Assembly (NCBI GenBank): GCA_017355425.1 | Contig: CP070233.1 | Coordinates: 5,341,272 to 5,389,271 of the forward strand | Direction of reading: 5' to 3' | DNA from: Dolichospermum sp. DET69 | Lineage (GTDB): Bacteria; Cyanobacteriota; Cyanobacteriia; Cyanobacteriales; Nostocaceae | DNA: 48,000 bases | Shown: positions 11,409-47,166 of the stretch, in pieces | How the letters are laid out: every line of letters starts with the position of its first letter | Numbering within the stretch: position 1 is the first letter of the stretch | Translations under genes and position numbers: made by a program | The notes under the pieces: generated by a model | The model's database searches: none | Told to the model about the DNA's origin: nothing | Seen by the model: only the letters and a program-made list of their open reading frames with translations

Positions 11409-11452
11409 TAGGAGTCAGGAGTCACCGAGTCAGGAGTCACCGAGTCAGGAGG
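11409..11452. repeat. STRR-type heptamer tandem repeats (GGAGTCA / CCGAGTCA series)
   Basis: taggagtcaggagtcaccgagtcaggagtcaccgagtcaggagg. Related arrays lie at 47124-47154 (inverse), 47950-47985 and 42090-42105. Confidence 0.85.
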
Positions 11453-16836: not shown

Positions 16837-17628
16837 TTACTTATCTTCTTGCATACTTCTGACAATTTTCGTCACCATTTTCCTAGGAATAAACCGCACA
16901 CATTTTGACATAAGTTTATTCATGAAACCAGGAATAATAATAGTTTTTCCTTTAATTAAAGCATCATAACCAATCTGTGCAACCGTTTCCGCATCCATCA
17001 TTTTTTTACCTTTAAGCATTTTAGAATCAGCCATGCCGCTTCTTTCATGAAATGCTGATACAGTAGAACCCGGACAAAGAACTGTTACAGTTACACCTGT
17101 ACCTTCTAATTCATTAGCGATCGCTTCTGAAAATGATAAAATATAGGCTTTAGTGGCAAAATACACTGCCATTAACGGACCTGGTTGAAATGCAGCCGCA
17201 GAAGCAACATTTAATATCTTGCCATGACCTTGTTTAACCATTTGTTTGAGAAATAACTTGGTTAAATGGGTTAAACAAACTAAATTTACCTGTAACATTT
17301 CCAGTTCGGTACTGAGGTTAGTTTCATTAAATAATCCATGATTTCCAAACCCGGCATTATTTACTAAAATATCAACCTTAATTCCAGCCTCTTGCAACTC
17401 TGTAAAAATTTCTTCTGGAGATGTGGATATAGATAAATCTTTGATAATAGGTTTAACAGAAACCCCAAACTCTTCTTGAAAATCAACAGCTATTTTCGTA
17501 AGTTTTTCACCTACCCTATCTACCAATACAAGATTGTAATTTTCACGAGCAAAAATCCGGGCTAACTGATAACCAATACCATTGGCTGAACCCGTAATTA
17601 AAACAGTTCCCTGACATTTTACGTTCAT
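16837..17628 (-). CDS. Classical short-chain dehydrogenase/ketoreductase occupying the hetN position of the HGL island
   Basis: 263 aa. TGSANGIGYQLA (TGxxxGxG), NNAG, S...YFATK (YxxxK). It lies directly downstream of hglB/hetM, as hetN does in Anabaena PCC 7120, but it has no RGSGR motif. Confidence 0.8.
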   Translation of the reverse strand: MNVKCQGTVLITGSANGIGYQLARIFARENYNLVLVDRVGEKLTKIAVDFQEEFGVSVKPIIKDLSISTSPEEIFTELQEAGIKVDILVNNAGFGNHGLFNETNLSTELEMLQVNLVCLTHLTKLFLKQMVKQGHGKILNVASAAAFQPGPLMAVYFATKAYILSFSEAIANELEGTGVTVTVLCPGSTVSAFHERSGMADSKMLKGKKMMDAETVAQIGYDALIKGKTIIIPGFMNKLMSKCVRFIPRKMVTKIVRSMQEDK

Positions 17629-17675
17629 TTTAAAAAAGTTAATTAGCTAGGCACGGTTTACCCGTGCCAATACCA

Positions 17676-19184
17676 TTAGGCAAGAGTCAAGAAACCAGTT
17701 TGCACTAAATAGGATGTATAAGTCATCAACAATTGAGAATCAATAGGAGGACAAACAATAGAACTGCCTTTTAGTGCTTCTAGAGTTTCTTCACAACTAA
17801 TAATTGGTCTTCTAGCTTGTAAATACAAATCAGGAATAGTGATTTGTTCATCAGACCAACGTTCTAGTAAAAACGGACGCAAAGTGTATAAAGGATTATC
17901 TTGAGATGTCACATTATTAATTAACTCTGCTTGCCATTCTTCGTAGGGAATCATCTTCAATGAAAATCCAAAAGAACGCACCCAATCAACCAAAGATTTT
18001 AAGGAAGCAGGTTGAGGATGTTGTAAGTGAAAAGCCTTACCTACAGATGTTTCTTGTCGAGAAAGATAAACAACAGATTTGCTCACATAATCAACAGGAG
18101 ACATATCTAACATATAATCTACATCAGGAAAAGATCCCATTTGTAGACAACCTTTAATCATCAAATTGATAAAGTCATGGGTATTACAAATCCCAGTTTT
18201 GCTATCTCCAGAAATTAAAGGAGGTCGGTGAATAGTAATAGGTAATCCTCGACTACCAGCAATTTTCACTAATTTTTCCGACACCCATTTAGTTTGGGAA
18301 TAACCGAGAAAAATGCCTTCCCAGTCATCAAAACTATCCTGCTCTTTAACTACCTGACCAGCATAGGCACTTGACTCAAATACAGCCACACTAGAAACAT
18401 AATGCAATGGCTTCACTTTCGTTTGACAAGCTAAACGCAAAACTTCCTGTGTCCCTAAAACATTGGCTGTTTTTAATGCTGAGTAAGGATAAACATAATT
18501 CAGTAAAGCTGCACTATGATAAATAGTATCAATATTAGCGGCTAAACTTTCAAATTGTTCTGCACCAATTCCCAAATGTGGCTGTGCTAAATCACCAATG
18601 ATAGGGATAATACGGCTACTATATTCATCTTGCCAAATTCCATATTGTTGCAAATTATTTTCTAATTTGCTTTTACCTTCTTCCACATTACTAGCACGAA
18701 CCAAGCAATAAAGAGTTGCTTCAGATACTTCTAGCAATTCCTTGATGATAAAAGCCCCTAAATAACCCGTTCCTCCGGTTAAAAAGATATTTTTGGGGTT
18801 AGTGATAAAAACTGTATTACCTACAGGTTGAATAGTAGGGTCTAGGACAGCTTCCGCAGCTAAATCTAGAAGAGGAGGAGCAAAACTAACAGGGGAATTT
18901 GTCCCTGAATCTTTTGCTTGAGAATCATCAGTTGATTCTTCTGACAACCGTTGAGAAAGGGCTGCAATATTGGGATAATGCCAAAGTAAAATAGGAGAGG
19001 GTTTAAATCCTAGTAATTCTTCTAATTTACTAATGATCATCATGGCTTGAGCGGAATCCAAACCATAATTTTCTAAATTTTCATTAACATCAATTTCTGC
19101 GGTTTCTACTCCGACAACTTCCGCGAGATGAGAAACTAGAAATGCTTGAATACTTTCAGCATTATAAGACTGTTTTAAACTCAT
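17676..19184 (-). CDS. hglB: HglB/HetM: acyl-carrier domain fused to a thioester reductase (terminal reductive release)
   Basis: 502 aa. N-terminal carrier domain ([13 protein letters not shown]). The reductase part has [15 protein letters not shown] (NAD(P) binding) and YSQTK (YxxxK). Its start is 2 nt after the hglA stop. Confidence 0.85.
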
Positions 19185-19186
19185 TT

Positions 19187-20854
19187 TTACTTCTCCAATA
19201 TAGAAGGAATTGGTTGATATTGACTGTAATAAGCAGGCATTTGCAAACCTTGCATTTTTAAACTGTGGCTGCGATATAAAAACCCAGCCCCTTTCATAAT
19301 TTGGTTAGCAACATCAACAACATGACGATGATTAGGTTCTGACAAATATGAACCACGTACCCAGTCATTGAAGCCACCCATAGCTGGTCCACACCAAATT
19401 TGATAATCAACTTCCCGACCTTTTTCACCAGTGCTAGACCAGCGGGAAGATAATCCTAAATACCAGCGAAAGATTACAGCCATTTTGAGTTTAGGATTGT
19501 TAACAGCTTTCCCCAATTTTTCTGGATTCTTTTGGGATAAATAAGCCGCTGCACCTTCCCAAACTTCTGCAAGACTTTTACGGAAAATTTGTTTTTCTAA
19601 CTTATCTTTTTCTGCTTGCGGAATCTGTTCAATAGAGTCGTAAGTGCGATATAATTCATACAATTTTTGCGCTCGCATGGGAAACATTGTCCCCCGTTTG
19701 AGAACTTGTAATTTCACTCCCATTTCAAACATATCGGCTGCGGGAGCCATAATCATATCCGCCATTTCTGCTTGTGCTAATAACTTTTTAGTATGTTCAC
19801 AAGCACCAGACTCAACACAAGATTGATTAATTGAACCAGTCATTATATAAGCAGCACCCATCATAAAACCAGCTAAAGCTGATTCTGGTGTGCCAATTCC
19901 TCCAGCTACTCCAATCCTAATAGGAACTGAGTAATTATATTGAGCTTGAGTTCCATCTCTGAGCGCAATAATTGAAGGTAATAAACATACTAAAGGACGA
20001 TTATCTGTATGACCACCAGAGTCAGCTTCAACAGTAATATCATCAGCCATGGGCACTTGACTAGCCAAATTGGCTTGTAATTCAGTAATTAGTCCTTGCT
20101 GAATTAATTCTTTGAGAATTCGTTCTGGTGCGGGTTGCAAAAATTTAGTAGCAACTTCCCGTCGGGAAACTTTAGCTATTACCTTATTTCTGATATCAAT
20201 TTGGTTAGCTGCATTCAATCTTAACCCAGCAACTCGATAATAAACAATATTCGGAGTTAAGTCTAAAAATGCTGATGCTTCTACTGTTCTGACACCATAT
20301 TTTAGATATAAATCTACAGCCCGGCGTTCAATAGCTGGTTCGTTAGGACTGTGAATTAAATTGAACGCGTAGGGTCCATCGGGTAACGCTTGTTGAATAT
20401 TATTAATCGCAGATTCTAAGCGTTCTGGAAGTAAACCACCTGCACCAAAGGAACTTAAAATTTTCTCTTTTCCTAGGGCAATTACCATTTCTTCAGAAGA
20501 AATACCTCCAGCCATTGCTCCCGTCATATAGGCATATTTTACACCATAAGCAGCAAGAAAACTAGAATCCCCAAGTTGTTGTAACCGTAGGGGTGGAAGT
20601 GATATTAAAAGTTCTGCTTGTCCAGATACACTATCATCAGCAGGTGCTAAATAGCCATCATTAGTAGCACCAATTTTTCCGGCTATTTTAATGAGATAAC
20701 AAGGTTTATCTAATGTTAAAAGTTTATCTTTGATAGCACTTTTTTCAAAGCTAACACAATCTAATGAACCTTTCCAAACTTGGTTTTGATGATTACAGGT
20801 AAAAAAACCAAGCCCATTATCATGTTTATTTAGTACCGTCTCGATTGTTGTCAC
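19187..20854 (-). CDS. hglA: HglA: PfaD-type FMN enoyl reductase
   Basis: 555 aa. PfaD/nitronate-monooxygenase-like blocks ([35 protein letters not shown]). GTG start with gagga upstream. Confidence 0.85.
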
Positions 20855-20965
20855 GGTAATTATTCCTCAAATAAAAAAAAGTTGAGAATGAAGAATTTAG
20901 CTCACGCAAAGGCGCAGAGGCGCAAAGAAAGAGAGTAAATACAATTTCTATTAAATTTTTTCTTC

Positions 20966-20995
20966 CCTCTGTGTCCTCTGTGCCTCTGTGGTTCG
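20966..20995. repeat. Dispersed short repeat with core GAACCACAGAGGCACAGAG
   Basis: cctctgtgtcctctgtgcctctgtggttcg here is the inverse of cgaaccacagaggcacagagaacacagagag at 11490-11520. Related GAACCACGAAGGAGCG-type copies lie at about 25843 and 42040-42062. Confidence 0.7.
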
Positions 20996-21029
20996 TTTAA
21001 AAAAGAGCTTTAAGCTCAACCCAAGTGCA

Positions 21030-24000
21030 TTATTTCTCTTCGTTAAGCAAATTTTGAGCGCAAGCTAATTGCAATTGAATGATTTCGCTCATTTGCTGAC
21101 TAAAATCTTGTCTAGCTGTTAAAAAACTTGTGTGCGTTTTAGTTAATTTGGCAGTGTTGTTACTCAGTTTTTGATACTGAGAAATTTTTAAATCATTCAT
21201 GCTAACTTTTTCACCAGATTCTTGATTTATATTTTGCTTGAGGATTTTAGTTGACTCAAAGAATTTTAGTTTCTTTGACAATTCCAAACCGTTCTCCATG
21301 ATAGTTTTCATGGTATTTTTTGCTAGTTTAGGTTGGGGTTTGGGGTAAATGTCTGTAGGGGCTATTTTCTCCGATGTTTGTAAGGAATTGATGATTTTAT
21401 ACTCTTGATGAGTAAAAATTGTTTGCTTTTGGTTATTAGCAAAAATTTGCCGATTTTCTGCATTTAAAATTGCAGAAGTCATGGAATTACCACCTAAAGT
21501 AACTGTCCTCAGTGCAGCTTTTTTCTGTTGTGTATTTTCTGAGGATAAGTTATACAAAGGAGTTAGATTCACATTTACTTGATGACTCAATAGTTTTGCT
21601 AATGCTTTAATTAGGGAACTATGGTCATCTGTGCCGCGTCGGTTTAGGGATACGGTAAGATGTTCTTGATTACCCAGATTTTTATCTATCCAGCGTGAAC
21701 AAATACCACCAGCACCGGCTTCAATAAAGATTTTTGCTCCGTCAGCATAGACGCGATTAACTAAGCGGGGAAAGTCGAGTTGTTGACATAATCCTGTGGC
21801 AATATTGTGGGCAATTTGTTGGCTATCAATTTCAATTGATTGATATTCAGCAGCGGAGTAAAACTTGACTCCGGGGATTTTTTGCGCTGGTATAGTGTAT
21901 AGTTTTTCCAATTCTTGAGACTCTGATTTCATTGCTTGACAATGAATTACATGATCAAAAGGAGCAGGAAAAGAATTACAACCCAGGGTTTTAATCACTC
22001 GTCCACAAGCTGCGGGATCTCCAGCAATTAATACTTCTTCTGGTGTATTAATCTGTGTTAAGTAAACGCGAGTTTCATTTTTTAAACATTCTCTGACTTG
22101 CTCAGGACTAGCCATAAGAACGTAATTACTCCACAACTTATTCTCTGGAGTTGTGGCAGTTTTTGGTAGTCCCCAATACTCACGCACAGCATTTTTAGAA
22201 CCTGATAATCTATCTCCAAATAAAGCTGATGAATTAAAGGTGTGACTAACTTCATAAAAATTGCTCCATACTCCTTGAGCAACCATCATGCTAGTTTCAC
22301 CTAAGCTATATCCGAAAATATATTTGGGTTTAATTTGAAAATCTTCGGTAATAATTGTGGAGATTAATCTGGTAAAAAGCACTTCGGCTTCAAACATTGC
22401 TAATGAATCAGCCAACAATTTCTTTTCTAGAGTTTCCAATTGTCGAGTTGATAATTTACTTAAACTTCTAGGAAATACCAGTTTTTCAACATCGGCTGCC
22501 CGTTCGTCAAGACTTTTGATAATTACATCATCTAAGACTTTAGGAAATAGCCGGAAAAGACTCCGACCGATACCCAGATAAGTATTGACAGCAGCGGGAT
22601 AAACAAAGGCTATTTCTCCATCTTTACCCAATGGTTTTGGTGTAAAATAACTACCTATGGGAGTCTGCCAATCTTTACCATTTGCAAAGGCATTAGTTAC
22701 ACCTTTTTTAGCAGAATTAATTTCTTTAATTAATTCTTTTTGGTTACGTCCAGTCAGAGATAAGGTATATTTTGGCTGAGAATGTTGTTGAAATTTAACA
22801 AAGGTTTGACTAGCAATATTTTTGAGAGAATCAGCATTTTCAATTGTTTGTTGCAAATGATCCAATGCTACTAATAAGCTAGATTGATCATCTGCTGCAA
22901 TGGGTAACAAATGCAAAGGTCTTGATTCTAGGTATGTGCTAATGCGTTCTGGTTGTTGGATTTCTTCTGATAAGATGACATGAGCAAAAGAACCGTCACA
23001 ACCAATACTATTAATCGCCGAAATTCGAGATTTGACCTCTTTTTGCAAGAACCAAGGTCTGGATTCCGTCGCAACATAGAAAGGACTGCCTTCCCATACT
23101 TGCGGTGTTTTAACACCAGACCAATTAGGAGTTCCTGGAATATATCTGTGATAAATACTCAGTGCAGTTTTAATTAAACTGGCAATTCCTGATGCAACGA
23201 AGGTATGACCAATATTAGATTTAATGCTACCTATAGCGCAGTGTAAACCATCTCCAACTTGAGGATAAGCTTGCAGGATACCGTTAATTTCGGCTTCGTC
23301 TTCTGCGGGAATACCACTAGCGCAGACTTCTAAATAGTTGACTTTTGTGGGTTCAATCCCTGCTTGTTGAAAAGCCTGTTGACAGACTTGAGTAATGGTA
23401 TTGCTATCTACAGCCATTGAGGGAGATTGACCAATGCTAATACCATCAATTACTGCATAGATACGTTCATTGTTGTTTAATGCCGTATCATGACGTTTGA
23501 GAACAACTGCACCGGCACCTTCTCCCACATTCCAACCATTAGCTTTTTCGTCAAAACTTAAAGTATTGACTCCTGTATTAATTTTTCCAAATTGACTTCG
23601 CAGTAATACATTTTCTACACCTCCTGCTAAGTCAACAGCACCGACAACTACAGCATCTACTTCATTAGTATCAAGTAGCATTTGCGCGAGTTCTAAAGCT
23701 TTAAAAGCGGCAGTTTCGACGGCACTAATTGTGAAAGATGGGCCTGAGAAATTCCATAAAGAAGAAATCCGGCTGGCCATAATGTTGGTAACATAACTGA
23801 GATATTCACTAAGTTCAACTTGATTATGAATACTATCTTGAACAATGCCTTCTAATTGATGGATTTTTTCTGGTGATAAAGCAATTTCTGCACCATTCAA
23901 ACCATCTTTAATTTGCCAAGATGAATTCCATCTTTGCTGTAGTTGGTGTACAGATAATTCTGTATCTGCGGCGATAATTACCGCTACATTGCTATTAGGT

Positions 24001-24344
24001 GAAATATTCGCATCTTTGAGGGCGCGGTCAGCAACTCTTAATAATAAAAGTTGTTGAGAGTTGATTTTTTCAACTTCATTAGGAGGTATCTTGTAACCTA
24101 AAGTATCAACTTCAAAATTATCAATATACGCTCCTTGTGGTACTTTTCCAGCTTCTAAACCATACTCTCGCAGTAAAGTTTCTTGCTCATTAATCCCATG
24201 CCATCTGGATTCTGGCAGAGGAATAAAATGCTGTTTTCCGTCATAAATACTGCTCTCAAAAGCATCTAATTCTTGACATTCACCAAAGAAGGCATCCATG
24301 CCCACAATTGCCATTTTTGCAGTCAGATTTTGCTCAATATTCAT
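21030..24344 (-). CDS. hglC: HglC: KS-like chain-length-factor domain fused to an acyltransferase-like domain
   Basis: 1104 aa. The N-terminal KS fold lacks the active-site Cys (GPSFTISAVETAAFKAL, with Glu where KS has Cys) but retains GSIKSNIGHT. The central GYSLGETSMM is an AT-type GxSxG. Its start is 4 nt after the hglD stop. Confidence 0.85.
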   Translation of the reverse strand: MNIEQNLTAKMAIVGMDAFFGECQELDAFESSIYDGKQHFIPLPESRWHGINEQETLLREYGLEAGKVPQGAYIDNFEVDTLGYKIPPNEVEKINSQQLLLLRVADRALKDANISPNSNVAVIIAADTELSVHQLQQRWNSSWQIKDGLNGAEIALSPEKIHQLEGIVQDSIHNQVELSEYLSYVTNIMASRISSLWNFSGPSFTISAVETAAFKALELAQMLLDTNEVDAVVVGAVDLAGGVENVLLRSQFGKINTGVNTLSFDEKANGWNVGEGAGAVVLKRHDTALNNNERIYAVIDGISIGQSPSMAVDSNTITQVCQQAFQQAGIEPTKVNYLEVCASGIPAEDEAEINGILQAYPQVGDGLHCAIGSIKSNIGHTFVASGIASLIKTALSIYHRYIPGTPNWSGVKTPQVWEGSPFYVATESRPWFLQKEVKSRISAINSIGCDGSFAHVILSEEIQQPERISTYLESRPLHLLPIAADDQSSLLVALDHLQQTIENADSLKNIASQTFVKFQQHSQPKYTLSLTGRNQKELIKEINSAKKGVTNAFANGKDWQTPIGSYFTPKPLGKDGEIAFVYPAAVNTYLGIGRSLFRLFPKVLDDVIIKSLDERAADVEKLVFPRSLSKLSTRQLETLEKKLLADSLAMFEAEVLFTRLISTIITEDFQIKPKYIFGYSLGETSMMVAQGVWSNFYEVSHTFNSSALFGDRLSGSKNAVREYWGLPKTATTPENKLWSNYVLMASPEQVRECLKNETRVYLTQINTPEEVLIAGDPAACGRVIKTLGCNSFPAPFDHVIHCQAMKSESQELEKLYTIPAQKIPGVKFYSAAEYQSIEIDSQQIAHNIATGLCQQLDFPRLVNRVYADGAKIFIEAGAGGICSRWIDKNLGNQEHLTVSLNRRGTDDHSSLIKALAKLLSHQVNVNLTPLYNLSSENTQQKKAALRTVTLGGNSMTSAILNAENRQIFANNQKQTIFTHQEYKIINSLQTSEKIAPTDIYPKPQPKLAKNTMKTIMENGLELSKKLKFFESTKILKQNINQESGEKVSMNDLKISQYQKLSNNTAKLTKTHTSFLTARQDFSQQMSEIIQLQLACAQNLLNEEK

Positions 24345-24348
24345 TTGC

Positions 24349-25716
24349 TTACTTCCCCTGTTCTAGAATGATGTGAGAGTTTGTTCCACCAAAACCAAAT
24401 GCACTTAAAGCTACTCTTTTAGTTTCTTGACTCGGCCATTTAGTAGGCGTTCTGACAATGTTTTTTGGAGAGACAACATTATTTTCAGAACCTATGGGTT
24501 GAGTCACATTAATAGTGGGAGGAATAACGCCATGAGACATACTTAAAATTGTCTTGGTTATCCCCACCATGCCCGCAGCAACAAGTAAATGACCAACATT
24601 TGTTTTAGTTGAACCTACTAAAGGTGCTGCTTGATATGGACTAAAAAAGCCTTCAATGGAGTTACATTCGGTGGTATCTCCCAATAGAGTGCCAGTAGCA
24701 TGACACTCTAAATAATCAATTGTTTGGGGGTTAAGTTTAGCTTCTGAATAAGCTCTTTGATATGCCAGAGTTTGCCCTTGAGGATTAGGACTAAGAAGAT
24801 GTTTACCTTTACCATCATTAGATAAACCATTACCACAAATTGTTGCCAGAATTTTATCCCCATCTCTAACAGCATCACTATATCTTTTGAGCATTACCAT
24901 TCCTATGCCTTCGGAGGTAATTAACCCGCGTGATGACTTGTCAAGAGGACGACTAATACCATTATCGGGATATCCTTGAATCCCAGAAAATAACATTCTG
25001 ATAAATAATGGATCTGAACAACTAATAGCACCAGCTAACATCAAATCAGCTTTGCCAGATTGCAGATAATGGGATGCTAATTTAATGGCATAAAATGATG
25101 AGGAACAAGCAGCATCTATAGAGAAATGAGTTGGAGACAGAGAGAATGCTTTGGAAACTATAGCAGCAGGTAAACCTGAAACCATAGCATTGTATGGAGA
25201 GACTTTTTGAGAGGTGGATAAACCCCCTAAACGAAAATCTTTTTCCTGTAAAAGTTCACCAATTGCAGGTTCAATATTTTGCTGATAAATAGGAGCAAAT
25301 AATTGATTAGATGCTTTCGTTGGTAATCCCAGAGTTCCTAAAATGACTCCACATTTTGCCAGTGCAGTTTGATTTCCCCAATAACCACTTTGAACAATGG
25401 CTTGTTTTGCAGCGTACAATGACCATTTGAAGGTGTTATCTAAGCTTTCTAGAAATGATTCAGGTAAATTATATTCATTAGCATCAAACTTAAAGTTGCG
25501 GATAAATCCACCTTTTGAAAAGTAGAATTTTTCCGGTTTACCTTTATTAGAATCGTAGAATATAGCGGGATCTATTCCCAAATCCGCTATAGTTATAGAT
25601 GATGTGGAATCTTTTTCTTCGGTAAGATTCTGCCAAAATTCTTCAGGATTATGAGCATCGGGAAATAGGCAAGATAACCCGATGATTGCTATTTTTTCCA
25701 CTTTTGAAATCCTCAT
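24349..25716 (-). CDS. hglD: HglD: beta-ketoacyl synthase
   Basis: 455 aa. Complete catalytic triad context: IDAACSSSFYAIKLA, ECHATGTLLGD, GSTKTNVGHLLVAAG. Confidence 0.9.
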   Translation of the reverse strand: MRISKVEKIAIIGLSCLFPDAHNPEEFWQNLTEEKDSTSSITIADLGIDPAIFYDSNKGKPEKFYFSKGGFIRNFKFDANEYNLPESFLESLDNTFKWSLYAAKQAIVQSGYWGNQTALAKCGVILGTLGLPTKASNQLFAPIYQQNIEPAIGELLQEKDFRLGGLSTSQKVSPYNAMVSGLPAAIVSKAFSLSPTHFSIDAACSSSFYAIKLASHYLQSGKADLMLAGAISCSDPLFIRMLFSGIQGYPDNGISRPLDKSSRGLITSEGIGMVMLKRYSDAVRDGDKILATICGNGLSNDGKGKHLLSPNPQGQTLAYQRAYSEAKLNPQTIDYLECHATGTLLGDTTECNSIEGFFSPYQAAPLVGSTKTNVGHLLVAAGMVGITKTILSMSHGVIPPTINVTQPIGSENNVVSPKNIVRTPTKWPSQETKRVALSAFGFGGTNSHIILEQGK

Positions 25717-27659: not shown

Positions 27660-27683
27660 AACTATGATTTTTGTGATTAAATA

Positions 27684-30535
27684 GTCGGAACTATGATTTA
27701 TGTAATTTGTTTGATTGGGATGATTAATTTGTCTGAACTGTGATTCTTGTGATTAGTTTGATTAAGATGATTTGATTTGTTAATCATCTCAATCACATAA
27801 ATCAAATTAATCATAGTTCAGAAATTATTCGTCTGAACTGTGATTCTTGTGATTAGTTTGATTAAGATGATTTGATTTGTTAATCATCTCAATCACATAA
27901 ATCAAATTAATCATAGTTCAGAAATTATTCGTCTGAACTGTGATTCTTGTGATTAGTTTGATTAAGATGATTTGATTTGTTAATCATCTCAATCACATAA
28001 ATCAAATTAATCATAGTTCAGAAATTATTCGTCGGAACTGTGATTCTTGTGATTAGTTTGATTAAGATGATTTGATTTGTTAATCATCTAAATCACATAA
28101 ATCAAATTAATCATAGTTCAGAAATTATTCGTCGGAACTGTGATTCTTGTAATTAGTTTGATTAAGATGATTTGATTTGTTAATCATCTCAATCACAAAA
28201 ATCAAATTAATCATAGTTCAGAAATTATTCGTCTGAACTGTGATTCTTGTGATTAGTTTGATTAAGATGATTTGATTTGTTAATCATCTCAATCACATAA
28301 ATCAAATTAATCATAGTTCAGAAATTATTCGTCGGAACTGTGATTCTTGTGATTAGTTTGATTAAGATGATTTGATTTGTTAATCATCTCAATCACATAA
28401 ATCAAATTAATCATAGTTCAGAAATTATTCGTCGGAACTGTGATTCTTGTGATTAGTTTGATTAAGATGATTTGATTTGTTAATCATCTCAATCACATAA
28501 ATCAAATTAATCATAGTTCAGAAATTATTAGTCTGAACTGTGATTCTTGTGATTAGTTTGATTAAGATGATTTGATTTGTTAATCATCTCAATCACATAA
28601 ATCAAATTAATCATAGTTCAGAAATTATTAGTCTGAACTGTGATTCTTGTGATTAGTTTGATTAAGATGATTTGATTTGTTAATCATCTCAATCACATAA
28701 ATCAAATTAATCATAGTTCAGAAATTATTAGTCTGAACTGTGATTCTTGTGATTAGTTTGATTAAGATGATTTGATTTGTTAATCATCTCAATCACATAA
28801 ATCAAATTAATCATAGTTCAGAAATTATTAGTCTGAACTGTGATTCTTGTGATTAGTTTGATTAAGATGATTTGATTTGTTAATCATCTCAATCACATAA
28901 ATCAAATTAATCATAGTTCAGAAATTATTCGTCGGAACTGTGATTCTTGTGATTAGTTTGATTAAGATGATTTGATTTGTTAATCATCTCAATCACATAA
29001 ATCAAATTAATCATAGTTCAGAAATTATTCGTCTGAACTGTGATTCTTGTGATTAGTTTGATTAAGATGATTTGATTTGTTAATCATCTCAATCACATAA
29101 ATCAAATTAATCATAGTTCAGAAATTATTCGTCTGAACTGTGATTCTTGTGATTAGTTTGATTAAGATGATTTGATTTGTTAATCATCTCAATCACAAAA
29201 ATCAAATTAATCATAGTTCAGAAATTATTCGTCGGAACTGTGATTCTTGTGATTAGTTTGATTAAGATGATTTGATTTGTTAATCATCTCAATCACATAA
29301 ATCAAATTAATCATAGTTCAGAAATTATTCGTCGGAACTGTGATTCTTGTGATTAGTTTGATTAAGATGATTTGATTTGTTAATCATCTAAATCACATAA
29401 ATCAAATTAATCATAGTTCAGAAATTATTCGTCGGAACTGTGATTCTTGTAATTAGTTTGATTAAGATGATTTGATTTGTTAATCATCTCAATCACAAAA
29501 ATCAAATTAATCATAGTTCAGAAATTATTCGTCGGAACTGTGATTCTTGTGATTAGTTTGATTAAGATGATTTGATTTGTTAATCATCTCAATCACATAA
29601 ATCAAATTAATCATAGTTCAGAAATTATTAGTCTGAACTGTGATTCTTGTGATTAGTTTGATTAAGATGATTTGATTTGTTAATCATCTCAATCACATAA
29701 ATCAAATTAATCATAGTTCAGAAATTATTAGTCTGAACTGTGATTCTTGTGATTAGTTTGATTAAGATGATTTGATTTGTTAATCATCTCAATCACATAA
29801 ATCAAATTAATCATAGTTCAGAAATTATTCGTCGGAACTGTGATTCTTGTGATTAGTTTGATTAAGATGATTTGATTTGTTAATCATCTTAATCACATAA
29901 ATCAAATTAATCATAGTTCAGAAATTATTCGTCTGAACTGTGATTCTTGTGATTAGTTTGATTAAGATGATTTGATTTGTTAATCATCTAAATCACATAA
30001 ATCAAATTAATCATAGTTCAGAAATTATTCGTCTGAACTGTGATTCTTGTGATTAGTTTGATTAAGATGATTTGATTTGTTAATCATCTTAATCACAAAA
30101 ATCAAATTAATCATAGTTCAGAAATTATTCGTCTGAACTGTGATTCTTGTGATTAGTTTGATTAAGATGATTTGATTTGTTAATCATCTCAATCACATAA
30201 ATCAAATTAATCATAGTTCAGAAATTATTCGTCGGAACTGTGATTCTTGTGATTAGTTTGATTAAGATGATTTGATTAATCACAAAAATCAGATAAATCA
30301 TAAAAATCATAGTTCAGAAATTATTCGTCTGAACTGTGATTCTTGTGATTAGTTTGATTCAGATGATTTGATTTGTTAATCATCTCAATCACATAAATCA
30401 AATTAATCAAATTAATCATAGTTCAGAAATTATTCGTCTGAACTGTGATTCTTGTGATTAGTTTGATTAAGATGATTTGATTTGTTAATCATCTTAATCA
30501 CATAAATCAAATTAATCATAGTTCAGAAATTATTC
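27684..30535. repeat. Tandem array: degenerate half-unit, then 25 units of exactly 100 bp, then three irregular units (96, 109 and 100 bp). Each unit is an imperfect palindrome.
   Basis: The consensus unit gtctgaactgtgattcttgtgattagtttgattaagatgatttgatttgttaatcatctcaatcacataaatcaaattaatcatagttcagaaattattc recurs in perfect 100-bp register from 27731 to 30230. Only 5 positions vary. There are stops in all six frames and no ORF of 60 aa or more. Confidence 0.97.
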
Positions 30536-33500
30536 GGCTTTGGCTACTAGGGTTACTCGTCCTTGAGAACTATAACCAACTTCACCAATATATCTATTGG
30601 AATCATGCAATTCAGCAACAATATATTCGGCAGATTCGTGAGGATCTAAAGTAGGATTGAGGTCAATTGCTCGGAAAAATACCTGTGGCCATTCCCATCG
30701 CAAACTCTTAGTTAAACCAAACAAACCAGCAGCAATTGCACTAAAATTACCTTGATGTCCTAATCCAAATTCACCGTCAAGATGGGCAACTGTGCAGAAA
30801 CTTGTTCTTCCTTCTAAAGCTGCGGCATTATTCAAAGTTGCTTTCAGGTTTTTAGCCATTAAAAACACTTGTTTAATAATTGCTTTTTCGGCTTCTGGAT
30901 AGGAAATATGCCCAGGTTTTTCAGGAGTAAATTGAGGATGTAGGTGAATAAATGCCCCAATCGGTCCGTGTTTAGTCATCACACTTTGCAATAATAATTG
31001 CAGATGTTGTTCACTCATATTTGCCAAAGTTACGCGGGTAACACCTACGGGTAATGGCAATTGCTCGGAAACTAACGATTGGGGGAAACTCAAAACTACT
31101 ATTTGCCAACCTTGTTCAATCAGTGCATGGGCTAGTTTGGTGGTAGTTAAAGAACCATCATCAGTGATTAAAGCAATGTGTCCTTCTGGTAATTTCGCTT
31201 CCCAAAAATCTGGGCGTGGTAAGGTTTTGAGTTTAGCAGGACGACGGGGAAGATTTGTGGGTACTATTGGTGGTGGGGTTAAATCGGCTGTGATATTAGA
31301 CCCCACCCCTGTGGTTGTTACCGAGTTAACATCAAACTGCGACTTTTTTTTTTCACCTCCCACCAATGATTGGAGGTAGTTTACGATTTGCCCGATTGTC
31401 CGTAGGTCGCCTAATTCTTCTATATTTGGTTTGGGTAAGTCGGGATATGCTTCCTGCATTGCTCCCAGTATTTCTACCCGTTTGATGGAATCTATGCCTA
31501 AGTCGGCTTCCATGTCCATGTCCAGTTCTAGCATTTCCACTGGATAACCTGTTTTTTCACTGGTGATGTTTAACAGGGTTTGTCCTAAATCAGCGTATTC
31601 GTTGCTGTTTTCTGAACTGGCTTCTGGAGGTGTGAAGACGGGAATAAATTCGGAAGTAGGAACTAATGGTAACTCAGGTATACTGATGATTGGTTCGGGG
31701 GCAATTTCTTCTTTTACCTCTTCCTTATCACCTTCTTTACTGTTACCTGTAACCTGTCCCCTGTCACCCATTCCTTGCAGATATTCAACAACTTGACCAA
31801 TAGTGCGTTTTTCTGCGAGTTCTTCAAGGTTAGGTTTGGGTAAGTTAGGGTATAACTCTTGCAATCCTCCCAGAATTTCTACTCGTTTAATAGAGTCAAT
31901 TCCTAAGTCTGCTTCCATATCCATATCGAGTTCTAGCATTTCGATAGGATAACCAGTTTTTTCGCTGGTAATACTTAATAAGTTGTTAGCTAGATCATCC
32001 AGATTCAGATTGCTGGTTACAGGTTCTGGTTCGGGAATAAATGCAACTACGGGAGCAACTGGTTCTGGAGTTGGTTCGGGAATAAATGCAACTACGGGAG
32101 CAATTGGTTCTGGAGTTGGTTCGGGAATAAATGCAACCACAGGAGCAACTGGTGCAGCAATTACAGGTTCTGCAACTTTCACGACAGGGGGAATAGTTGC
32201 TTCTACAAGTTGAACTTTTGGCTCAATTACTGGTAGTGCCTGAGGAGGAATAATGTTAACGTTAGCAGCACTGGTATTTACAGATGTTCCTTCTTGGGTA
32301 TCAGAAATTAGTTGAGAATATTCTTCTTGAATGAGTTGGAAAAAGTGTTTGGTATATTCCACCTGTTCCCGCAGATATTGTTCATGAATGCGGAGGGTTT
32401 CACCTTGTTGGGAATGAAACTGCATCATGCTGCGCTCTAAGCTTTCCATGATTACTTGCTTAATTTGAGCAGCATCTACGGAAGATTTAACATTAGCAAA
32501 TAAGGTGTTTTGCTGTTGCATTAATTGGAAGAAGGTTTTGGCATATTCCATCTGATGATTGAGATATGTACCGTGAACTTCTAAATTCTCGCTTTGATTG
32601 TCTTGAAACTGGCTCAAAAGTGTTTCTAAGCTAGTGAGAATTTGTTGGCAATTTACAAGCTTATTTGGTGTTTGCATCTTCTCTATGGATTGCTGCGCGA
32701 AAATTGCTGGAACTGGTTCTTTTATAATAGTTGCAGTTGTCATTTGGGGCTGTAACAGGGTTTCAATGACAGGTTGTTTTTTATGTCCATTACCGTTGCC
32801 GTTATGTCCATTGGTTGCGGCAATTTTGGTAATTACAGAAGTTTCAATTTCTGCAATTTTTGGCGCGGTTTCTGGTTCTGGATTTTTGGGTGCAGACCCT
32901 GCGCTCCTACTTCCCACTTGATGCCCGTCTGCTAATGCTTCCTGAAAGGCATTTCTGGTTTTGTCGGAAACGTAGTTAATGCCGGTTAATTTGACGCTGA
33001 GGGTCTTTTTGGTGGAAATGGGAGGCAATACGGCAGGAAGTTGGTAGGGGTCGAGATTGCTAAGATTCATCCCGATAACGCGCAACTGAACTGCGGCTTC
33101 TCGCAAAGAGCGATCGCTGTTTTTTGAGCTACTAGGATTCAGCGATATGGTAAGATGTGGGCGATCGCCTAAGGTATCTTTTACCAAGTTACTCAAAACC
33201 CGTTTGGGACCAAATTCTACGAAGCAATAACCACCAGCCCCATAGATATTTTCAATCTCTTGCTTAAACAAAACTGAACTAGCTAAATGGCTTTCTAAGT
33301 TCTTTTGAATTGCTGCTGCATTCTGGGGATAATGTTTACCGGTGACGTTACTAAAAACGGGAATTTGGGGATTTTGGAAAGTTACAGATTTGGTCGCAAT
33401 AGCAAAGGATTTTTGCGCGAATGCAATCAACGGAGTATGGAAAGCCGCAGATACAGGCAATAAAACTGCACTATATCCCAACTTTTGGCAAGCATCCTGG

Positions 33501-35962
33501 ATTTTCTGAATTTCTAACTTTGGCCCAGCCAAAACAATCTGCGTGGGAGAATTAAAGTTAGCAATACTTACTTTGGGAAATTGCTTCAGCACAGGTTCAA
33601 TTTTGCTGATATCTTCCTTCACCGCTAACATACTTCCAGCATCATGATCTGGGTCTTTGGGTGCAGCCATTGCTTGTCCTCTAGCCTTCACCAGAAACAA
33701 GTAATCAGCCTCACTCAACACTCCAGCCGCCCACAAAGCCGTTAATTCACCAAAACTATGTCCAGCGGTGAAATCTGCTTTAAACCCAGCTTGCTGCAAA
33801 ATCCCATATAAACCAGCACTAAATACCCCAATTGCTGGCTGTGCATATTCGGTTCTTTGTAAAGCTGCAATTTGCGCTTTTTTCTCAACTTCATCAAAGG
33901 AAGAATGGGGGAAAACAATTTCAGAAACTGGTTGCAAATTACTTTGCTTGAATAGATGATCCATCTTGCCATATAACTGTCGCAAGCTGGGGAAATTCAT
34001 CACCGCTTCTCTTCCCATTTCCAGATATTGAGAACCTTGTCCAGAGAATAAAGCGACAACTTTTCCAGCTAATTCTATGCCATTAGAACGGTAATAAATT
34101 CCTTGAGGATGTTCCCAAGCTGTTACATCAGGCTTATTTTTAAGTAAATCAATCCCAGTTTTGAGTAACTTACAAGCCTCTGGCAAATTCTCAGCTACAA
34201 ACCCAATTCTTGCTGCCGTTTTGGGAATAGTTAGAGATTGACAATCTAGGACTAATTGGGAATAGTATCTATCCCCATCATTAGCTTGTAAATTATTGAA
34301 AGTTGCTTCTAACTTAGTAATTAATTCGGCGTGAGTTGCACCAAATAACAACACTTCACTAGCCCCACCATGTAAACGATAAGGATTTTGTTGTTCTGGT
34401 TCGTATTCTTCTAAAACAACGTGGTAATTTGTGCCACCAAAACCAAAAGCACTTACACCCGCACGTCGGGGAGTTTCACCTTCTGCTTTTATCCAAGGTC
34501 TAGTTTGAGTGTTGAGATAAAAGGAGGAATTTTCAATATCTAATTTGGGATTTGGTTCGGTAATATTGATAGTTGCTGGTAATATCTTGTGATGCAATGC
34601 TAAGGCAGTTTTAATTAAACTAGCTGTACCAGCAGCGGCTTTTGTATGTCCAATTTGGGATTTTACACTTCCCAAAGCAATATGTTGTTTTTGGGTATCA
34701 TGTTTACCAAAGAAATCTCTTAAAGAACTAAATTCTATAGGATCTCCTGCCATTGTTCCTGTACCATGTGCCTCCATCAAACCTACAGTAGCAGGAGAGA
34801 AACCAGCATCATCATAAGCCCGTTCTAAGGCTTTAACTTGTCCTTCTTTTCTAGGAGCATAAATACTCTTGTAACGACCATCACTAGAAGTACCAATTCC
34901 CTTAATTACCGCATAGATTTTATCCCCATCTCTTTGGGCATCTTCTAAGCGTTTGAGGAGAATCATCCCAATACCTTCTCCTAACATCATCCCGTCAGAT
35001 TTAGCATCAAATGGTTTGACATTTTCGCTAGAAGTAACTGCTGGAGTTTTGCTAAAAGAGATGTAAGCCATGATAGTGTTATCGGTGTCTACTCCACCAG
35101 TTAACATCATATCGCTACGATGTTCAACTAATTCACTAATGGCCATTTTTAATGCGCCAAAGGAACTAGCACAAGCCGCATCAACTACACAGTTTGTACC
35201 ACCAAAATTGAAACGATTAGCAATTCTACCAGCAACCACATTTGCTAACATTCCAGGAAAAGCATTTTCATCCCATTTCACATAAGCAGATTTAATTTTA
35301 TCAACGATTTTTTTAGTATCTTCGTCAGATAAACCACTGCTTTTAAGGACTTTTTCCCAAACCGGATATTCTAATCTGGCAGCTAATGGCATTCCCAATT
35401 GTTTGCCCATTGCTACACCCAAAATTACGCCGATATTCTCGCGGCTAAATTCACGGGAGTCACCATAACCAGCATCTTCCATTGTTTCTTTCGCAACTAC
35501 TAAACTTAATAGTTGGGAAACATCTGTAACTTCTAAAATGCTGGGAGGAATGCCAAATTCCATGGGGTTAAAATCAACTTCAGGAATAAAACCACCACGT
35601 TTACAATAGGTTTTATCTTCTGGTGTTCTAGGATTAGGATCATAGTAGTCTTCTACACTCCAATGACTAGAAGGAACATCAGTAATACAATCAATTTTAT
35701 TAACAATATTTCGCCAATAGTCTCTTAATGTTCTGGACTGAGGCATTAAAGATGCCATACCAACAATAGCTATGGGAGTTGTATGTAGTTTTCTATTAAT
35801 TTCGTTAGTTGGCATGGAATTTTCTGATTGCGTGGCGTTAGTCATGTTCATTTTTTCTTCCTTGATAAACCTAAGCAAAGCTTGTTCACAACTATTAATT
35901 TGGGATTCTAATTCCGCTAAACCATTATTAATTGTGTCTATCTTTTTGGGGGGACAAGACAT
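30530..35962 (-). CDS. hglE: HglE: type I PKS/PUFA-synthase-like protein, KS-AT-ACP-ACP plus a C-terminal KR structural region
   Basis: 1810 aa. KS (VVDAACASSFGALKMA, EAHGTGT, KSQIGHTKAAAG), AT (GHSFGELTALWAAG), two carrier domains (LGIDSIKRVEILG twice), and a C-terminal PfaA-like pseudo-KR (GLFGLTKSLRWEWPQVFFRAIDL). The start is uncertain: 35962, or the internal MNMTNATQ about 38 codons later. Confidence 0.9.
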   Translation of the reverse strand: MSCPPKKIDTINNGLAELESQINSCEQALLRFIKEEKMNMTNATQSENSMPTNEINRKLHTTPIAIVGMASLMPQSRTLRDYWRNIVNKIDCITDVPSSHWSVEDYYDPNPRTPEDKTYCKRGGFIPEVDFNPMEFGIPPSILEVTDVSQLLSLVVAKETMEDAGYGDSREFSRENIGVILGVAMGKQLGMPLAARLEYPVWEKVLKSSGLSDEDTKKIVDKIKSAYVKWDENAFPGMLANVVAGRIANRFNFGGTNCVVDAACASSFGALKMAISELVEHRSDMMLTGGVDTDNTIMAYISFSKTPAVTSSENVKPFDAKSDGMMLGEGIGMILLKRLEDAQRDGDKIYAVIKGIGTSSDGRYKSIYAPRKEGQVKALERAYDDAGFSPATVGLMEAHGTGTMAGDPIEFSSLRDFFGKHDTQKQHIALGSVKSQIGHTKAAAGTASLIKTALALHHKILPATINITEPNPKLDIENSSFYLNTQTRPWIKAEGETPRRAGVSAFGFGGTNYHVVLEEYEPEQQNPYRLHGGASEVLLFGATHAELITKLEATFNNLQANDGDRYYSQLVLDCQSLTIPKTAARIGFVAENLPEACKLLKTGIDLLKNKPDVTAWEHPQGIYYRSNGIELAGKVVALFSGQGSQYLEMGREAVMNFPSLRQLYGKMDHLFKQSNLQPVSEIVFPHSSFDEVEKKAQIAALQRTEYAQPAIGVFSAGLYGILQQAGFKADFTAGHSFGELTALWAAGVLSEADYLFLVKARGQAMAAPKDPDHDAGSMLAVKEDISKIEPVLKQFPKVSIANFNSPTQIVLAGPKLEIQKIQDACQKLGYSAVLLPVSAAFHTPLIAFAQKSFAIATKSVTFQNPQIPVFSNVTGKHYPQNAAAIQKNLESHLASSVLFKQEIENIYGAGGYCFVEFGPKRVLSNLVKDTLGDRPHLTISLNPSSSKNSDRSLREAAVQLRVIGMNLSNLDPYQLPAVLPPISTKKTLSVKLTGINYVSDKTRNAFQEALADGHQVGSRSAGSAPKNPEPETAPKIAEIETSVITKIAATNGHNGNGNGHKKQPVIETLLQPQMTTATIIKEPVPAIFAQQSIEKMQTPNKLVNCQQILTSLETLLSQFQDNQSENLEVHGTYLNHQMEYAKTFFQLMQQQNTLFANVKSSVDAAQIKQVIMESLERSMMQFHSQQGETLRIHEQYLREQVEYTKHFFQLIQEEYSQLISDTQEGTSVNTSAANVNIIPPQALPVIEPKVQLVEATIPPVVKVAEPVIAAPVAPVVAFIPEPTPEPIAPVVAFIPEPTPEPVAPVVAFIPEPEPVTSNLNLDDLANNLLSITSEKTGYPIEMLELDMDMEADLGIDSIKRVEILGGLQELYPNLPKPNLEELAEKRTIGQVVEYLQGMGDRGQVTGNSKEGDKEEVKEEIAPEPIISIPELPLVPTSEFIPVFTPPEASSENSNEYADLGQTLLNITSEKTGYPVEMLELDMDMEADLGIDSIKRVEILGAMQEAYPDLPKPNIEELGDLRTIGQIVNYLQSLVGGEKKKSQFDVNSVTTTGVGSNITADLTPPPIVPTNLPRRPAKLKTLPRPDFWEAKLPEGHIALITDDGSLTTTKLAHALIEQGWQIVVLSFPQSLVSEQLPLPVGVTRVTLANMSEQHLQLLLQSVMTKHGPIGAFIHLHPQFTPEKPGHISYPEAEKAIIKQVFLMAKNLKATLNNAAALEGRTSFCTVAHLDGEFGLGHQGNFSAIAAGLFGLTKSLRWEWPQVFFRAIDLNPTLDPHESAEYIVAELHDSNRYIGEVGYSSQGRVTLVAKAE
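32022..32165 (-). repeat. 45-bp in-frame tandem repeat (about 3 copies) inside hglE, encoding a Pro/Ala/Val-rich linker
   Basis: ggttcgggaataaatgcaac starts at 32028, 32073 and 32118. The protein reads APVVAFIPEPTPEPI / APVVAFIPEPTPEPV / APVVAFIPEPEPV, just upstream of the first ACP. Confidence 0.9.
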
Positions 35963-38945: not shown

Positions 38946-38974
38946 TCATGGGTCATTAGTTATTAGTCATTTTC

Positions 38975-39021
38975 AACAACTGACAACTGACAACTGACAA
39001 CTGACAACTAACAACTGACAA
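38975..39021. repeat. STRR-type heptamer tandem repeats (CAACTGA/CAACTAA, about 6.5 copies)
   Basis: caacaactgacaactgacaactgacaactgacaactaacaactgacaa. The array ends 4 nt before the hgdC ATG. It is the same heptamer as the array in front of plsY. Confidence 0.9.
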
Positions 39022-39025
39022 ATAT

Positions 39026-46970: not shown

Positions 46971-47123
46971 AGTAAATTTACCTTTCTGACATTAATTAAA
47001 CGCAGTATGACAGATCAATAAAGGATCTAATTTAGGTTATAAGCAAATATCAAGTTTTACAAGTATTCTGACTCACTTACTCTTTATTTATTCTTCTTTT
47101 TCCTCCTCCTCCTTATTCTTCCT

Positions 47124-47154
47124 CCTGACTCCTGACTCGGTGACTCCTGACTCC
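47124..47154. repeat. STRR-type heptamer repeats directly upstream of the pstB-like start
   Basis: cctgactcctgactcggtgactcctgactcc. This is the inverse of the array at 11409-11452. Confidence 0.85.
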
Positions 47155-47166
47155 TTTCTTATAAAT

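Follow-up and report, generated by a model that had tools for sequence, protein, structure and literature searches.

A 28.5-unit palindromic array between hglE and hglF of Dolichospermum sp. DET69, probably an amplified member of a cross-phylum repeat family

Several kinds of short palindromic or tandem repeats are known from bacteria. The REP/REPIN-RAYT system of gammaproteobacteria (repetitive extragenic palindromes, their hairpin-forming doublets and the REP-associated tyrosine transposase) places short palindromes behind stop codons in operons, miniature transposable elements with inverted repeats (MITEs) such as Correia of Neisseria and Nezha of Nostocales are dispersed and non-coding, and Rickettsia palindromic elements (RPE) can even sit in coding sequence. 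A survey of bacterial MITEs described cyanobacteria such as Aphanizomenon as MITE-rich (PMC11602168). Further systems of note are the attC sites of integrons, minisatellites with a variable number of tandem repeats (VNTR), and the NsiR1 array upstream of hetF in Anabaena PCC 7120. Here, we analysed a stretch of 48,000 nucleotides from Dolichospermum sp. DET69 (GenBank assembly GCA_017355425.1, contig CP070233.1, positions 5,341,272 to 5,389,271, forward strand; the window hereafter), in which the gap between two genes of the heterocyst-glycolipid cluster, hglE and hglF, is taken up by a tandem array of palindromic units of about 100 bp.

The 2.85-kb array is real. Tandem Repeats Finder returned a single array at 27727-30536 with a period of 100, 28.0 copies, 96% matches and a score of 5238, and the array has a G+C content of 26% in surroundings of 36-43%. 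The analysis confirmed what a first-pass annotation of this DNA had described, namely 25 units of exactly 100 bp in register (27731-30230), irregular terminal units of 96, 109 and 100 bp starting at 30231, 30327 and 30436, a degenerate half unit at 27684-27730, and the replacement of the ordinary spacer behind hglE, which in relatives measures 94-315 bp and holds no element. Element-derived sequence reaches beyond the half unit to position 27660, where a truncated arm abuts the ATG of the next gene; the whole gap of 2,870 bp is therefore element-derived. Its parts are listed below in transcript order, together with the matches of a hidden Markov model (HMM) of the arms that was built only from arms of foreign phyla.

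30436 to 30535, minus strand: unit 1 in transcript order (100 bp), starting GAA TAA TTT followed by CTGAACTATGATT; arm HMM matches at 30434-30478 and 30527-30486
30327 to 30435, minus strand: 109-bp variant unit, one 9-bp sub-repeat AATCAAATT gained
30231 to 30326, minus strand: 96-bp variant unit
27731 to 30230, minus strand: 25 regular 100-bp units
27684 to 27730, minus strand: solo arm (half unit), AATCATCCCAATCAAACAAATTACATAAATCATAGTTCCGAC on the transcript strand; arm HMM E = 5.9e-4
27660 to 27683, minus strand: truncated arm AATCACAAAAATCATAGTT, directly before the ATG of the next gene; arm HMM E = 0.018

A regular unit consists of a 91-bp palindrome (CTGAAC…GTTCAGAC) plus the junction CGAATAATTT and reads, on the transcribed strand, CGAATAATTT-CTGAACTATGATT-AATT-TGATT-TATG-TGATT-GAGA-TGATT-AACAAATC-AAATCA-TCTT-AATCA-AACT-AATCA-CAAG-AATCACAGTTCAGA. 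One arm shows TGATT and the other AATCA every 9 bp; in the GTCTGAAC arm of the window TGATT lies at +10, +19, +28 and +37, with the other arm in the same phase. Altogether, 256 of these motifs were counted in the array, that is 89 per kb versus 4.1 per kb in the remaining window, and the terminal 15-mers GTCTGAACTRTGATT / AATCAYAGTTCAGAC gave 58 matches at up to two mismatches, with 0 expected. The end of hglE (GCC GAA TAA TTT) is identical to the junction, which means that each unit holds a copy of the last codon and the stop codon of hglE; the stop codon itself (TAA, 30530-30532) and the last codon lie inside the first unit, the TAA 4 nt before the element terminus. Between the 96-bp and the 100-bp unit, 87 of 100 columns are identical; one arm is common to both, whilst the other arm holds a cluster of differences, and the 96-bp unit has the shorter centre. 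RNA folding predicted a hairpin of -35.3 kcal/mol for one unit and -71.5 kcal/mol for two (z = -11.4).

The array was rightly held to be neither a CRISPR locus nor coding: units abut without unique spacers, the 7-10-nt junction being itself repeated, and the open reading frames (ORFs) that the units do contain are not maintained. On the minus strand each unit has an ATG-to-stop mini-ORF of 28-38 codons, which in 3 of the 28 units is shortened to 8 codons, and every unit variant that falls inside it changes or truncates the peptide. Due to these truncations and peptide-changing variants, the mini-ORF is not a conserved coding sequence, and a conserved micropeptide was rejected as a candidate.

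As previously annotated, variation among the 25 regular units is restricted to positions 4, 21, 60, 68 and 100, on which all 27 differences from the consensus fall. They define ten haplotypes in the order AAABCADEFFFADAGDBCEFAHIJA, in which the blocks BC and EF recur. This pattern bears on the question whether an assembler inflated one or a few units, an unlikely explanation that we would give very little credence. Short-read contigs with identical flanking proteins show only 4.5 to 5.5 units at least, but the array sits on a 5.8-Mb contig, its differences come in recurring multi-unit blocks on five of 100 positions, unlike random consensus error, an independent assembly, L002, repeats the order of the three unit types (100-109-96), and other taxa also have arrays of this family.

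To place the unit, one genome per prokaryotic species was searched with the pattern GAACTRTGATTNNTNTGATT, which gave at least 120 loci, though about as many chance matches are expected for this pattern as the 120 listed. Features outside the query show that these are not chance matches: among the matches listed, GTCT precedes the match at 101 loci, the arm consensus extends to ATTGTCTGAACTGTGATT, and TGATT recurs in 64 (+28) and 67 (+37) of 184 arms; a spacing of exactly 9 bp between motifs was counted 263 times. The family signature consists of the termini (ATT)GTCTGAACTRTGATT … AATCAYAGTTCAGAC(AAT), two to four subterminal TGATT/AATCA motifs at 9-bp spacing per arm and a variable centre. The unit of the array shares the terminal inverted 15-mers, the 9-bp-phased TGATT and the place right behind the stop codon of a co-oriented gene. 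Among the matches listed, 39 distinct complete palindromes of 63-136 bp represent seven phylum-level groups, and several genomes hold two to four loci each. Copies, typically of 80-130 bp, were found in Chloroflexota (including Dehalococcoidia), several orders of Bacteroidota, bacteria of the Ignavibacteria/Chlorobi group, Kapaibacterium, Thermochlorobacteriaceae, Desulfobacterota (Desulfobacterales, Syntrophales), Thiotrichaceae, Parabeggiatoa, Leptospiraceae, cyanobacteria and phage contigs. In the reverse direction, the HMM of foreign arms detected 59 arms in the window, all at 27660-30527 (best E = 5.6e-9), and no others in the 301 kb of related DNA from cyanobacteria that it was run on.

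Two copies from cyanobacteria are located at unrelated loci: Dolichospermum sp. ST_sed8 (L077) carries 1.5 units behind a gene for 443 aa, and an uncultured cyanobacterium (L102) has a 129-bp copy that starts 3 nt after carB and shares 37 of 41 positions of an arm with the window. Tandem copies also occur elsewhere, with two units in Spirosoma (L047) and 1.5 units in Thiotrichaceae (L014), besides those of L077. A Thiotrichaceae contig (L108) bears arrays at both ends, at 1-356 and 6736-7165, with at least four units (period 107) and at least six units (period 66); as it begins and ends inside arrays, such arrays evidently break short-read assemblies. Among viral contigs a stricter pattern found 19 stretches versus about 0.2 expected. 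On the 26-kb phage contig IMGVR_UViG_3300023179_000445 (L158, L159, L165, L166), 26 single arms were detected, between genes and all in gene orientation. Some upstream genes on this contig stop at the TGA of an arm while the next gene starts at its ATG or GTG, and a second hairpin repeat, CGTCATTGCGAGGCACGTAGTGCCGAAGCAACC, is joined directly to many of the arms. The plasmid collection gave no match to the array unit, and Rfam, searched by E-value threshold with seven foreign element loci, returned only microRNA-like hairpin noise. These comparisons show the unit to be, as judged from its sequence, a member of a cross-phylum palindromic family that is not unique to the hgl locus or to cyanobacteria.

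This assignment changes the earlier interpretation in part. The array had been denied the terminal inverted-repeat structure of a single MITE, but its units end in the inverted repeats CTGAACTRTGATT / AATCAYAGTTCAG and belong to a dispersed family. A tie to heterocyst development, which had been implied, does not agree with copies at unrelated cyanobacterial loci (the 443-aa gene, carB) and in at least six other phyla. The first-pass annotation had itself named a dispersed repeat at unrelated loci as the outcome that would speak against its proposal, and at the level of the family this is what was found. What stands of it is the non-coding, non-CRISPR nature of the array, the spacer replacement and the VNTR character, but not the exclusion of a MITE, the heterocyst tie or a small RNA (sRNA) array of the NsiR1 kind. 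The last of these would make each unit a transcription unit of its own, induced in developing heterocysts, and we regard it as hardly tenable. Structured tandem units of about 100 nt do adjoin heterocyst genes here, but the unit type also occurs in non-heterocystous phyla and phage contigs and the array is absent from close heterocystous relatives. Promoter and terminator scans of the units gave nothing above shuffled controls and no T-run terminator in any unit, the heterocyst-type motif TCCGGA was not found in the unit, and Rfam at the gathering threshold had no match in the array and a single kind of hit, a HEARO RNA, elsewhere in the window.

The history of the locus was followed through relatives. 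Six contigs (L124, L134, L135, L138, L141 and L145), whose HglF is 77-91% identical to that of the window (five at 90-91%), have an element-free spacer of 94-104 bp with the native sequence GAATAATTTGTAGGGTGGGCAATGCCCACC…AGGTGAGGTTTT-ATG; the element is also absent from A. cylindrica PCC 7122 and Trichormus azollae, with spacers of 106 and 315 bp, from the PCC 7120 group (114 bp) and from Nostocales at a greater distance. Every examined element-free relative with an HglF at least 77% identical, including the six contigs, A. cylindrica and T. azollae, carries a GC-rich stem-loop (GGTGGGCAATGCCCACC or GGGGCAA…TTGCCCC) directly after the hglE stop, seen for instance in the spacers of L124, L134, L135 and L145 and at L125 4895-5000 and L127 4686-5000. 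Between hglE and hglF this native stem-loop may act as an attenuator or stabilise the 3' end; it is gone in the lineage of the window. In the metagenome contigs L132 and L133 (HglF 93% identical), 1.5 units, i.e., one family member of about 140 bp and a solo arm, fill the 175-184 bp from the hglE stop to the hglF ATG exactly. L003 and L002, with an HglF identical to that of the window, hold at least 4.5 and at least 5.5 units, respectively, in the order 100-(109)-96-100-96'-half, counted in short-read assemblies in which identical 100-bp units may be collapsed. The window has the order 100-109-96-(100)x25-half, or 28.5 units. A half unit homologous to 27684-27730 is present in L132/L133, L002 and L003; since the 96' unit occurs in L002 and L003 but not in the window, their structures truly differ. 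Across increasingly close relatives the number of units thus goes from 0 through 1.5 and at least 4.5-5.5 to 28.5, as is typical of a VNTR, and because of this series the fast-evolving VNTR is the best fit among the roles that had been suggested for the array. These spacers date the arrival of the element to the time after the 90-91% lineage had split off; it displaced the native spacer together with its stem-loop and then expanded.

Taken together, it is likely that the array arose by tandem amplification of one non-autonomous palindromic element, MITE- or REP-like in its behaviour. Lodged behind the hglE stop, the element replaced the native spacer including the GC-rich stem-loop and grew from 1.5 units to at least 4.5-5.5 and then 28.5. 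Repeated multi-unit variant blocks, the gain of a 9-bp sub-repeat and units that share one arm only suggest that the array grew as adjacent copies underwent unequal recombination or replication slippage. The array probably rides passively on the hglE-to-hglF transcript as a run of hairpins of about -35 kcal/mol, tolerated rather than required, and at most it may stand in for the lost stem-loop as a 3' stabiliser or partial barrier. As an array it is of an ordinary kind, a selfish palindrome amplified as a VNTR within an operon, with no heterocyst-specific invention. Out of the ordinary is the family, with termini shared by at least seven phyla, its presence in phages, a minimal nuclease as cargo, the lack of target-site duplication and a terminal module that supplies stop codons.

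The most serious rival is a co-opted RNA element, in which the hairpins would act as a 3' stabiliser of the hglE mRNA, as a processing platform for RNase III or RNase E, or as a partial barrier to transcription or translation, and would so set the ratio of HglE to HglF; this REP-like replacement of the lost stem-loop we consider rather unlikely. It gains from the fact that the native GC-rich stem-loop has been lost precisely where each unit now offers a strong hairpin, and that the family sits just behind stop codons, like REP elements. One hairpin would be enough, however, which leaves 28 unexplained, the copy number varies among near-identical strains, and there is no T-run terminator. Moreover, the stems are 5-bp blocks between non-complementary 4x4 loops, so base-pairing itself is not conserved. 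Family-wide, the 4-nt spacers on the two arms show 33.6% identity after reverse-complementing versus a background of 38.7%, and a selected perfect hairpin was rejected. It is motif and phase, therefore, that are conserved and not base-pairing, which is the pattern expected of multiple protein-binding sites at element ends, at least as far as the sequences tell, rather than of a selected RNA helix.

The same pattern could be taken as a sign that the 256 phased motifs of the array bind the nuclease described below or a host factor cooperatively and form a centromere- or silencer-like nucleoprotein block. The high motif density would agree with such a protein-nucleation array, as would the conservation of motif and 9-bp phase across phyla with spacers that are neither conserved nor complementary, as at transposon ends. 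It nevertheless seems improbable, as the window holds no candidate gene for a binder, the motif is equally readable as repeated ATGATT/GTGATT start sites, and single elements elsewhere hold only four to eight motifs.

Placement relative to genes was evaluated over the matches listed. ORFs of 100 codons or more end at -12 to +45 of the terminus for 48 of 202 outward arms (24%), compared with 5.7% of random positions, and 23 of these 48 ORFs stop at a TGA that belongs to the element, be it that of GTC-TGA (+3) or that of RTGATT (+10); recR in L039 and kdsB in L149 are examples. Members of the family are thus shown to sit preferentially right behind stop codons, often donating the stop themselves. 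That the element always fills the space from stop to start was rejected, given a downstream ATG adjacency of 6 of 202 versus 4.5%. Arm pairs separated by over 1 kb (L083, L039, L023) were likewise rejected as cargo-bearing, since the genes between them are ordinary ones of the host. No direct repeats indicating target-site duplication were found around 39 unique short elements. In one HsdS gene the reading frame runs on through an entire element: in L104 (1210-2535, minus strand), a type I restriction HsdS, the element is translated between the two target-recognition halves (…LNYDSSDLCDEHDLERKLKNNQGNHNNHKNQGSDN…) and a second element forms the C-terminal tail.

The terminal variable base R in CTGAACTRTGATT (window 30519; L166 5424-5451) yields ATG or GTG one codon after an in-frame TGA. 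Anecdotal cases together with a weak enrichment of open frames suggest that GTC-TGA-ACT-RTG-ATT is a stop-restart module. From this one may derive a relay of mini-ORFs, in which ribosomes would stop and restart unit by unit, with an ATG 3-13 nt after each stop, and would couple hglF to hglE. Each unit does have its ATG at the conserved RTG and its stop at the junction or at the TGA of the next unit, with 24 of 27 gaps measuring 3-13 nt; upstream ORFs elsewhere end at the TGAs of the terminal 15-mer, phage genes start at its ATG or GTG, and open frames from RTG are mildly enriched family-wide (21 versus 13.6 expected, z = 2.4, among the matches listed). Still, there is little to be expected of this relay: three units stop after 8 codons and leave gaps of 73 nt, the variants that fall within the mini-ORF all change or truncate the peptide, and 38 nt separate the end of the last mini-ORF from the hglF ATG. 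ORF starts inside inward arms are not enriched overall either (11% versus 16%), and on the same figures arms were rejected as general gene-start modules.

Some loci of the family carry a gene with the element. By tblastn, a protein of 65-85% identity was located between or beside arms at 11 loci among the matches listed, in Bacteroidota, Thermochlorobacteriaceae and Syntrophales; its family is the only type of cargo between arm pairs among these matches. The protein of 125-140 aa belongs to TIGR04256 GxxExxY (1.5e-41) and PF13366 PDDEXK_3 (2.5e-39). The gene starts at the last ATGATT (or ATGATA/GTGATT) of the left arm and stops in or just before the right arm. Across 30 members, D71, E81, K83 and Q95-x3-Y99 are invariant, and the nearest structures to an AlphaFold (AF2) model with a pLDDT of 82 are Cas4 SSO0001, lambda exonuclease and nuclease domains of the RecB type; the cargo is accordingly a predicted PD-(D/E)XK nuclease of the Cas4/RecB-like type. 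PADLOC, PHROGs and a PDB sequence search with the nuclease gave no matches. The long elements lie mostly inside type I restriction-modification operons, next to hsdS, hsdR, RhuM and methyltransferase genes; a copy from a cultured host, Mucilaginibacter ginsenosidivorans (CP042436.1), is located between kdsB and pyrG, with its GxxExxY gene at L149 3001-3414. The GxxExxY family comprises at least 7,998 protein clusters at E ≤ 1e-20, and eight plasmids carry GxxExxY genes, of which the one inspected has no canonical arms. For PF13366, a function given as "unknown" and multiple transfers between divisions have been described (PMC3424549). A full-text literature search found nothing linking GxxExxY/PF13366 to flanking repeats, and searches for the terminal sequences, the nuclease family, hglE tandem repeats and Dolichospermum MITEs found no description of the element or the array. 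The element family, with its nuclease cargo and its donation of stop codons to upstream genes, therefore appears to be undescribed.

Mobilisation of the family probably depends on the GxxExxY nuclease acting in trans, and as no target-site duplication was seen, we propose a nuclease-initiated, recombination-dependent route. Going further, the family could constitute a new class of mobile DNA, with termini common to at least seven phyla and to phages, moved by a minimal Cas4/RecB-like GxxExxY nuclease, settling at gene ends, where GTC-TGA-ACT-RTG-ATT would give the upstream gene a stop codon and offer a restart codon either to the element's own gene or to the one that follows, and multiplying in situ into long arrays; this is a tentative proposal, about which we remain doubtful.

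Several points weigh against an amplified, passively tolerated element that was mobilised in this way. A structured insert of 2.85 kb in an operon for N2 fixation in air should come at a cost, and its persistence at 28 copies could mean that it is useful. The native spacer is lost, not split, so this was not a simple insertion, and the unit numbers of L002 and L003 are lower bounds, as these assemblies can collapse identical units. Neither a second copy of the element nor a GxxExxY gene was found in the 48-kb window or its flanks, and L001 has no GxxExxY gene either. The role of the nuclease in mobility is something we infer from sequence features, and Persicobacter (L148) has a GxxExxY gene without canonical arms.

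The array is embedded in a co-oriented string of heterocyst-glycolipid genes, as had been recognised; both flanking ORFs and the downstream genes are on the minus strand. In Anabaena PCC 7120 the cluster consists of alr5351-alr5357 plus hetN, and gene names follow PMC8064123. The remaining string (16837..25716, minus strand) was called from the ORF list and from Pfam and TIGR profiles. Domains are abbreviated as KS (ketosynthase), AT (acyltransferase), ACP (acyl carrier protein), KR (ketoreductase), DH (dehydratase) and CLF (chain-length factor); SDR stands for short-chain dehydrogenase/reductase.

30530 to 35962, minus strand: hglE-like gene for the N-terminal part of a PfaA-type synthase (KS-AT-ACPs); Pfam domains ketoacyl-synt, Acyl_transf_1, PP-binding; TIGR02813 PfaA, 1789 bits
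25929 to 27659, minus strand: KR-DH gene (C-terminal part of a PfaA-type synthase; "hglF", position of alr5352); Pfam KR, PS-DH and PKS_DH_N; TIGR02813 positions 1993-2573
24349 to 25716, minus strand: KS gene
21030 to 24344, minus strand: KS/CLF-AT gene
19187 to 20854, minus strand: PfaD-type enoyl reductase
17676 to 19184, minus strand: ACP-thioester reductase, hglB-like
16837 to 17628, minus strand: hetN-like SDR

The first gene downstream of the array had been taken for hglG. Its KR-DH domains and its second position in the alr5351-5357 string mean that it is not a KS gene, hence the name hglF used here. Homologues exist across Nostocales; the HglF of the window is 89% identical to those of Anabaena UHCC 0451 and A. 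cylindrica and falls into a 445-member cluster typical of bloom-forming Nostocales.

Further observations concern the surroundings. Within hglE, a 45-bp in-frame tandem repeat (2.8 copies, 32027-32153) lies in the ACP/linker region; HglE has 1810 aa in the window versus 1820 aa in the near-identical L003, so this coding repeat also varies. The hglE gene is one single ORF of 1810-1820 aa in the window and in L001-L003, and in the PCC 7120 group (L129/L130, 1-4886) the called homologue has 1541 aa, with a separate ORF of 216 aa standing between it and the KR-DH gene. Two genes for 403 and 392 aa lie upstream of hglE and opposite to it (37734-40204, plus strand); their identical copies in L002 show membrane-fusion-protein and FtsX/MacB domains, consistent with a putative devBCA-type glycolipid exporter next to the synthase genes. 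The HEARO RNA (HNH endonuclease-associated RNA and ORF) at 1080-1343 on the minus strand scored 102 bits versus a gathering score of 83; the longest minus-strand ORF after it has only 106 aa, so it is apparently a solo copy without an IscB-type gene. Short tandem heptamers, long known from heterocystous cyanobacteria, are present as ACAACTG (8.6 and 6.6 copies at 6033-6093 and 38976-39021) and as AGGAGTC and CTCCTGA (11410-11451 and 47122-47155).

For heterocyst biology, the analysis removes a tempting false lead, as the array is no conserved regulatory feature of the glycolipid genes. At the same time, strains with 0, 1.5, few or 28 hairpin units between the halves of a split PfaA-type synthase represent a natural experiment, from which one could learn to what extent a developmental operon tolerates structure in its interior. 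For mobile-DNA biology, the locus points to a very widespread GxxExxY family with palindromic arms conserved from Dehalococcoidia to cyanobacteria; this nuclease family now has a defined DNA partner, the arms, and its function is therefore directly testable. Arrays of this kind also matter for genome assembly, since they break short-read contigs and are probably collapsed in L002 and L003.

Compared with the systems described so far, the array resembles that of NsiR1 in having tandem short structured units next to a heterocyst gene, but its sequence is different, it lacks a promoter and terminator per unit and any Rfam match, it is not conserved in heterocystous relatives, and its unit type occurs in non-cyanobacterial phyla. 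Like integron attC sites, including the Vibrio cholerae repeats (VCR), the elements are imperfect palindromes 60-140 bp long, conserved at their ends around …AAC / GTT… and variable in the centre; they can enclose small gene cassettes, and the phyla in which they occur are a similar set. However, their core TCTGAAC/GTTCAGA does not fit RYYYAAC/GTTRRRY, no integrase was found among the inspected neighbours of element loci, the cargo is a single gene family among the matches listed, and the hgl units follow each other without cassettes. As selfish palindromes able to sit in coding sequence and be translated, RPE are matched by the HsdS gene of L104, but most copies of the present family lie just outside ORFs and the family spans more than one genus.

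The REP/REPIN-RAYT system shares more features, namely short extragenic palindromes behind stop codons in operons, many gene-less copies alongside a protein gene that lies between palindromic arms of the same kind, the lack of target-site duplication and occasional tandem clusters. Here, however, the protein is a PF13366/TIGR04256 member, a predicted PD-(D/E)XK Cas4/RecB-like nuclease and not an IS200-type Y1 transposase of the RAYT kind; the termini are conserved across phyla, whereas REP sequences are species-specific, and the arms are arrays of 5-nt motifs at 9-bp spacing in place of GC-rich stems. With bacterial MITEs the element has in common a size of 80-140 bp, terminal inverted repeats, a non-coding and dispersed nature and co-transcription with neighbours. 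As a candidate for the autonomous partner there is the long form, which has the same ends but encodes the predicted nuclease. The element differs from MITEs in having neither target-site duplication nor a DDE transposase partner, and in its head-to-tail amplification in situ at the hgl locus. Finally, in bacterial minisatellite or VNTR loci near-identical units likewise follow each other head to tail, variants form higher-order blocks and close strains differ in copy number, but in the hgl array the repeat unit is itself a palindrome of the mobile-element type with relatives in other phyla.

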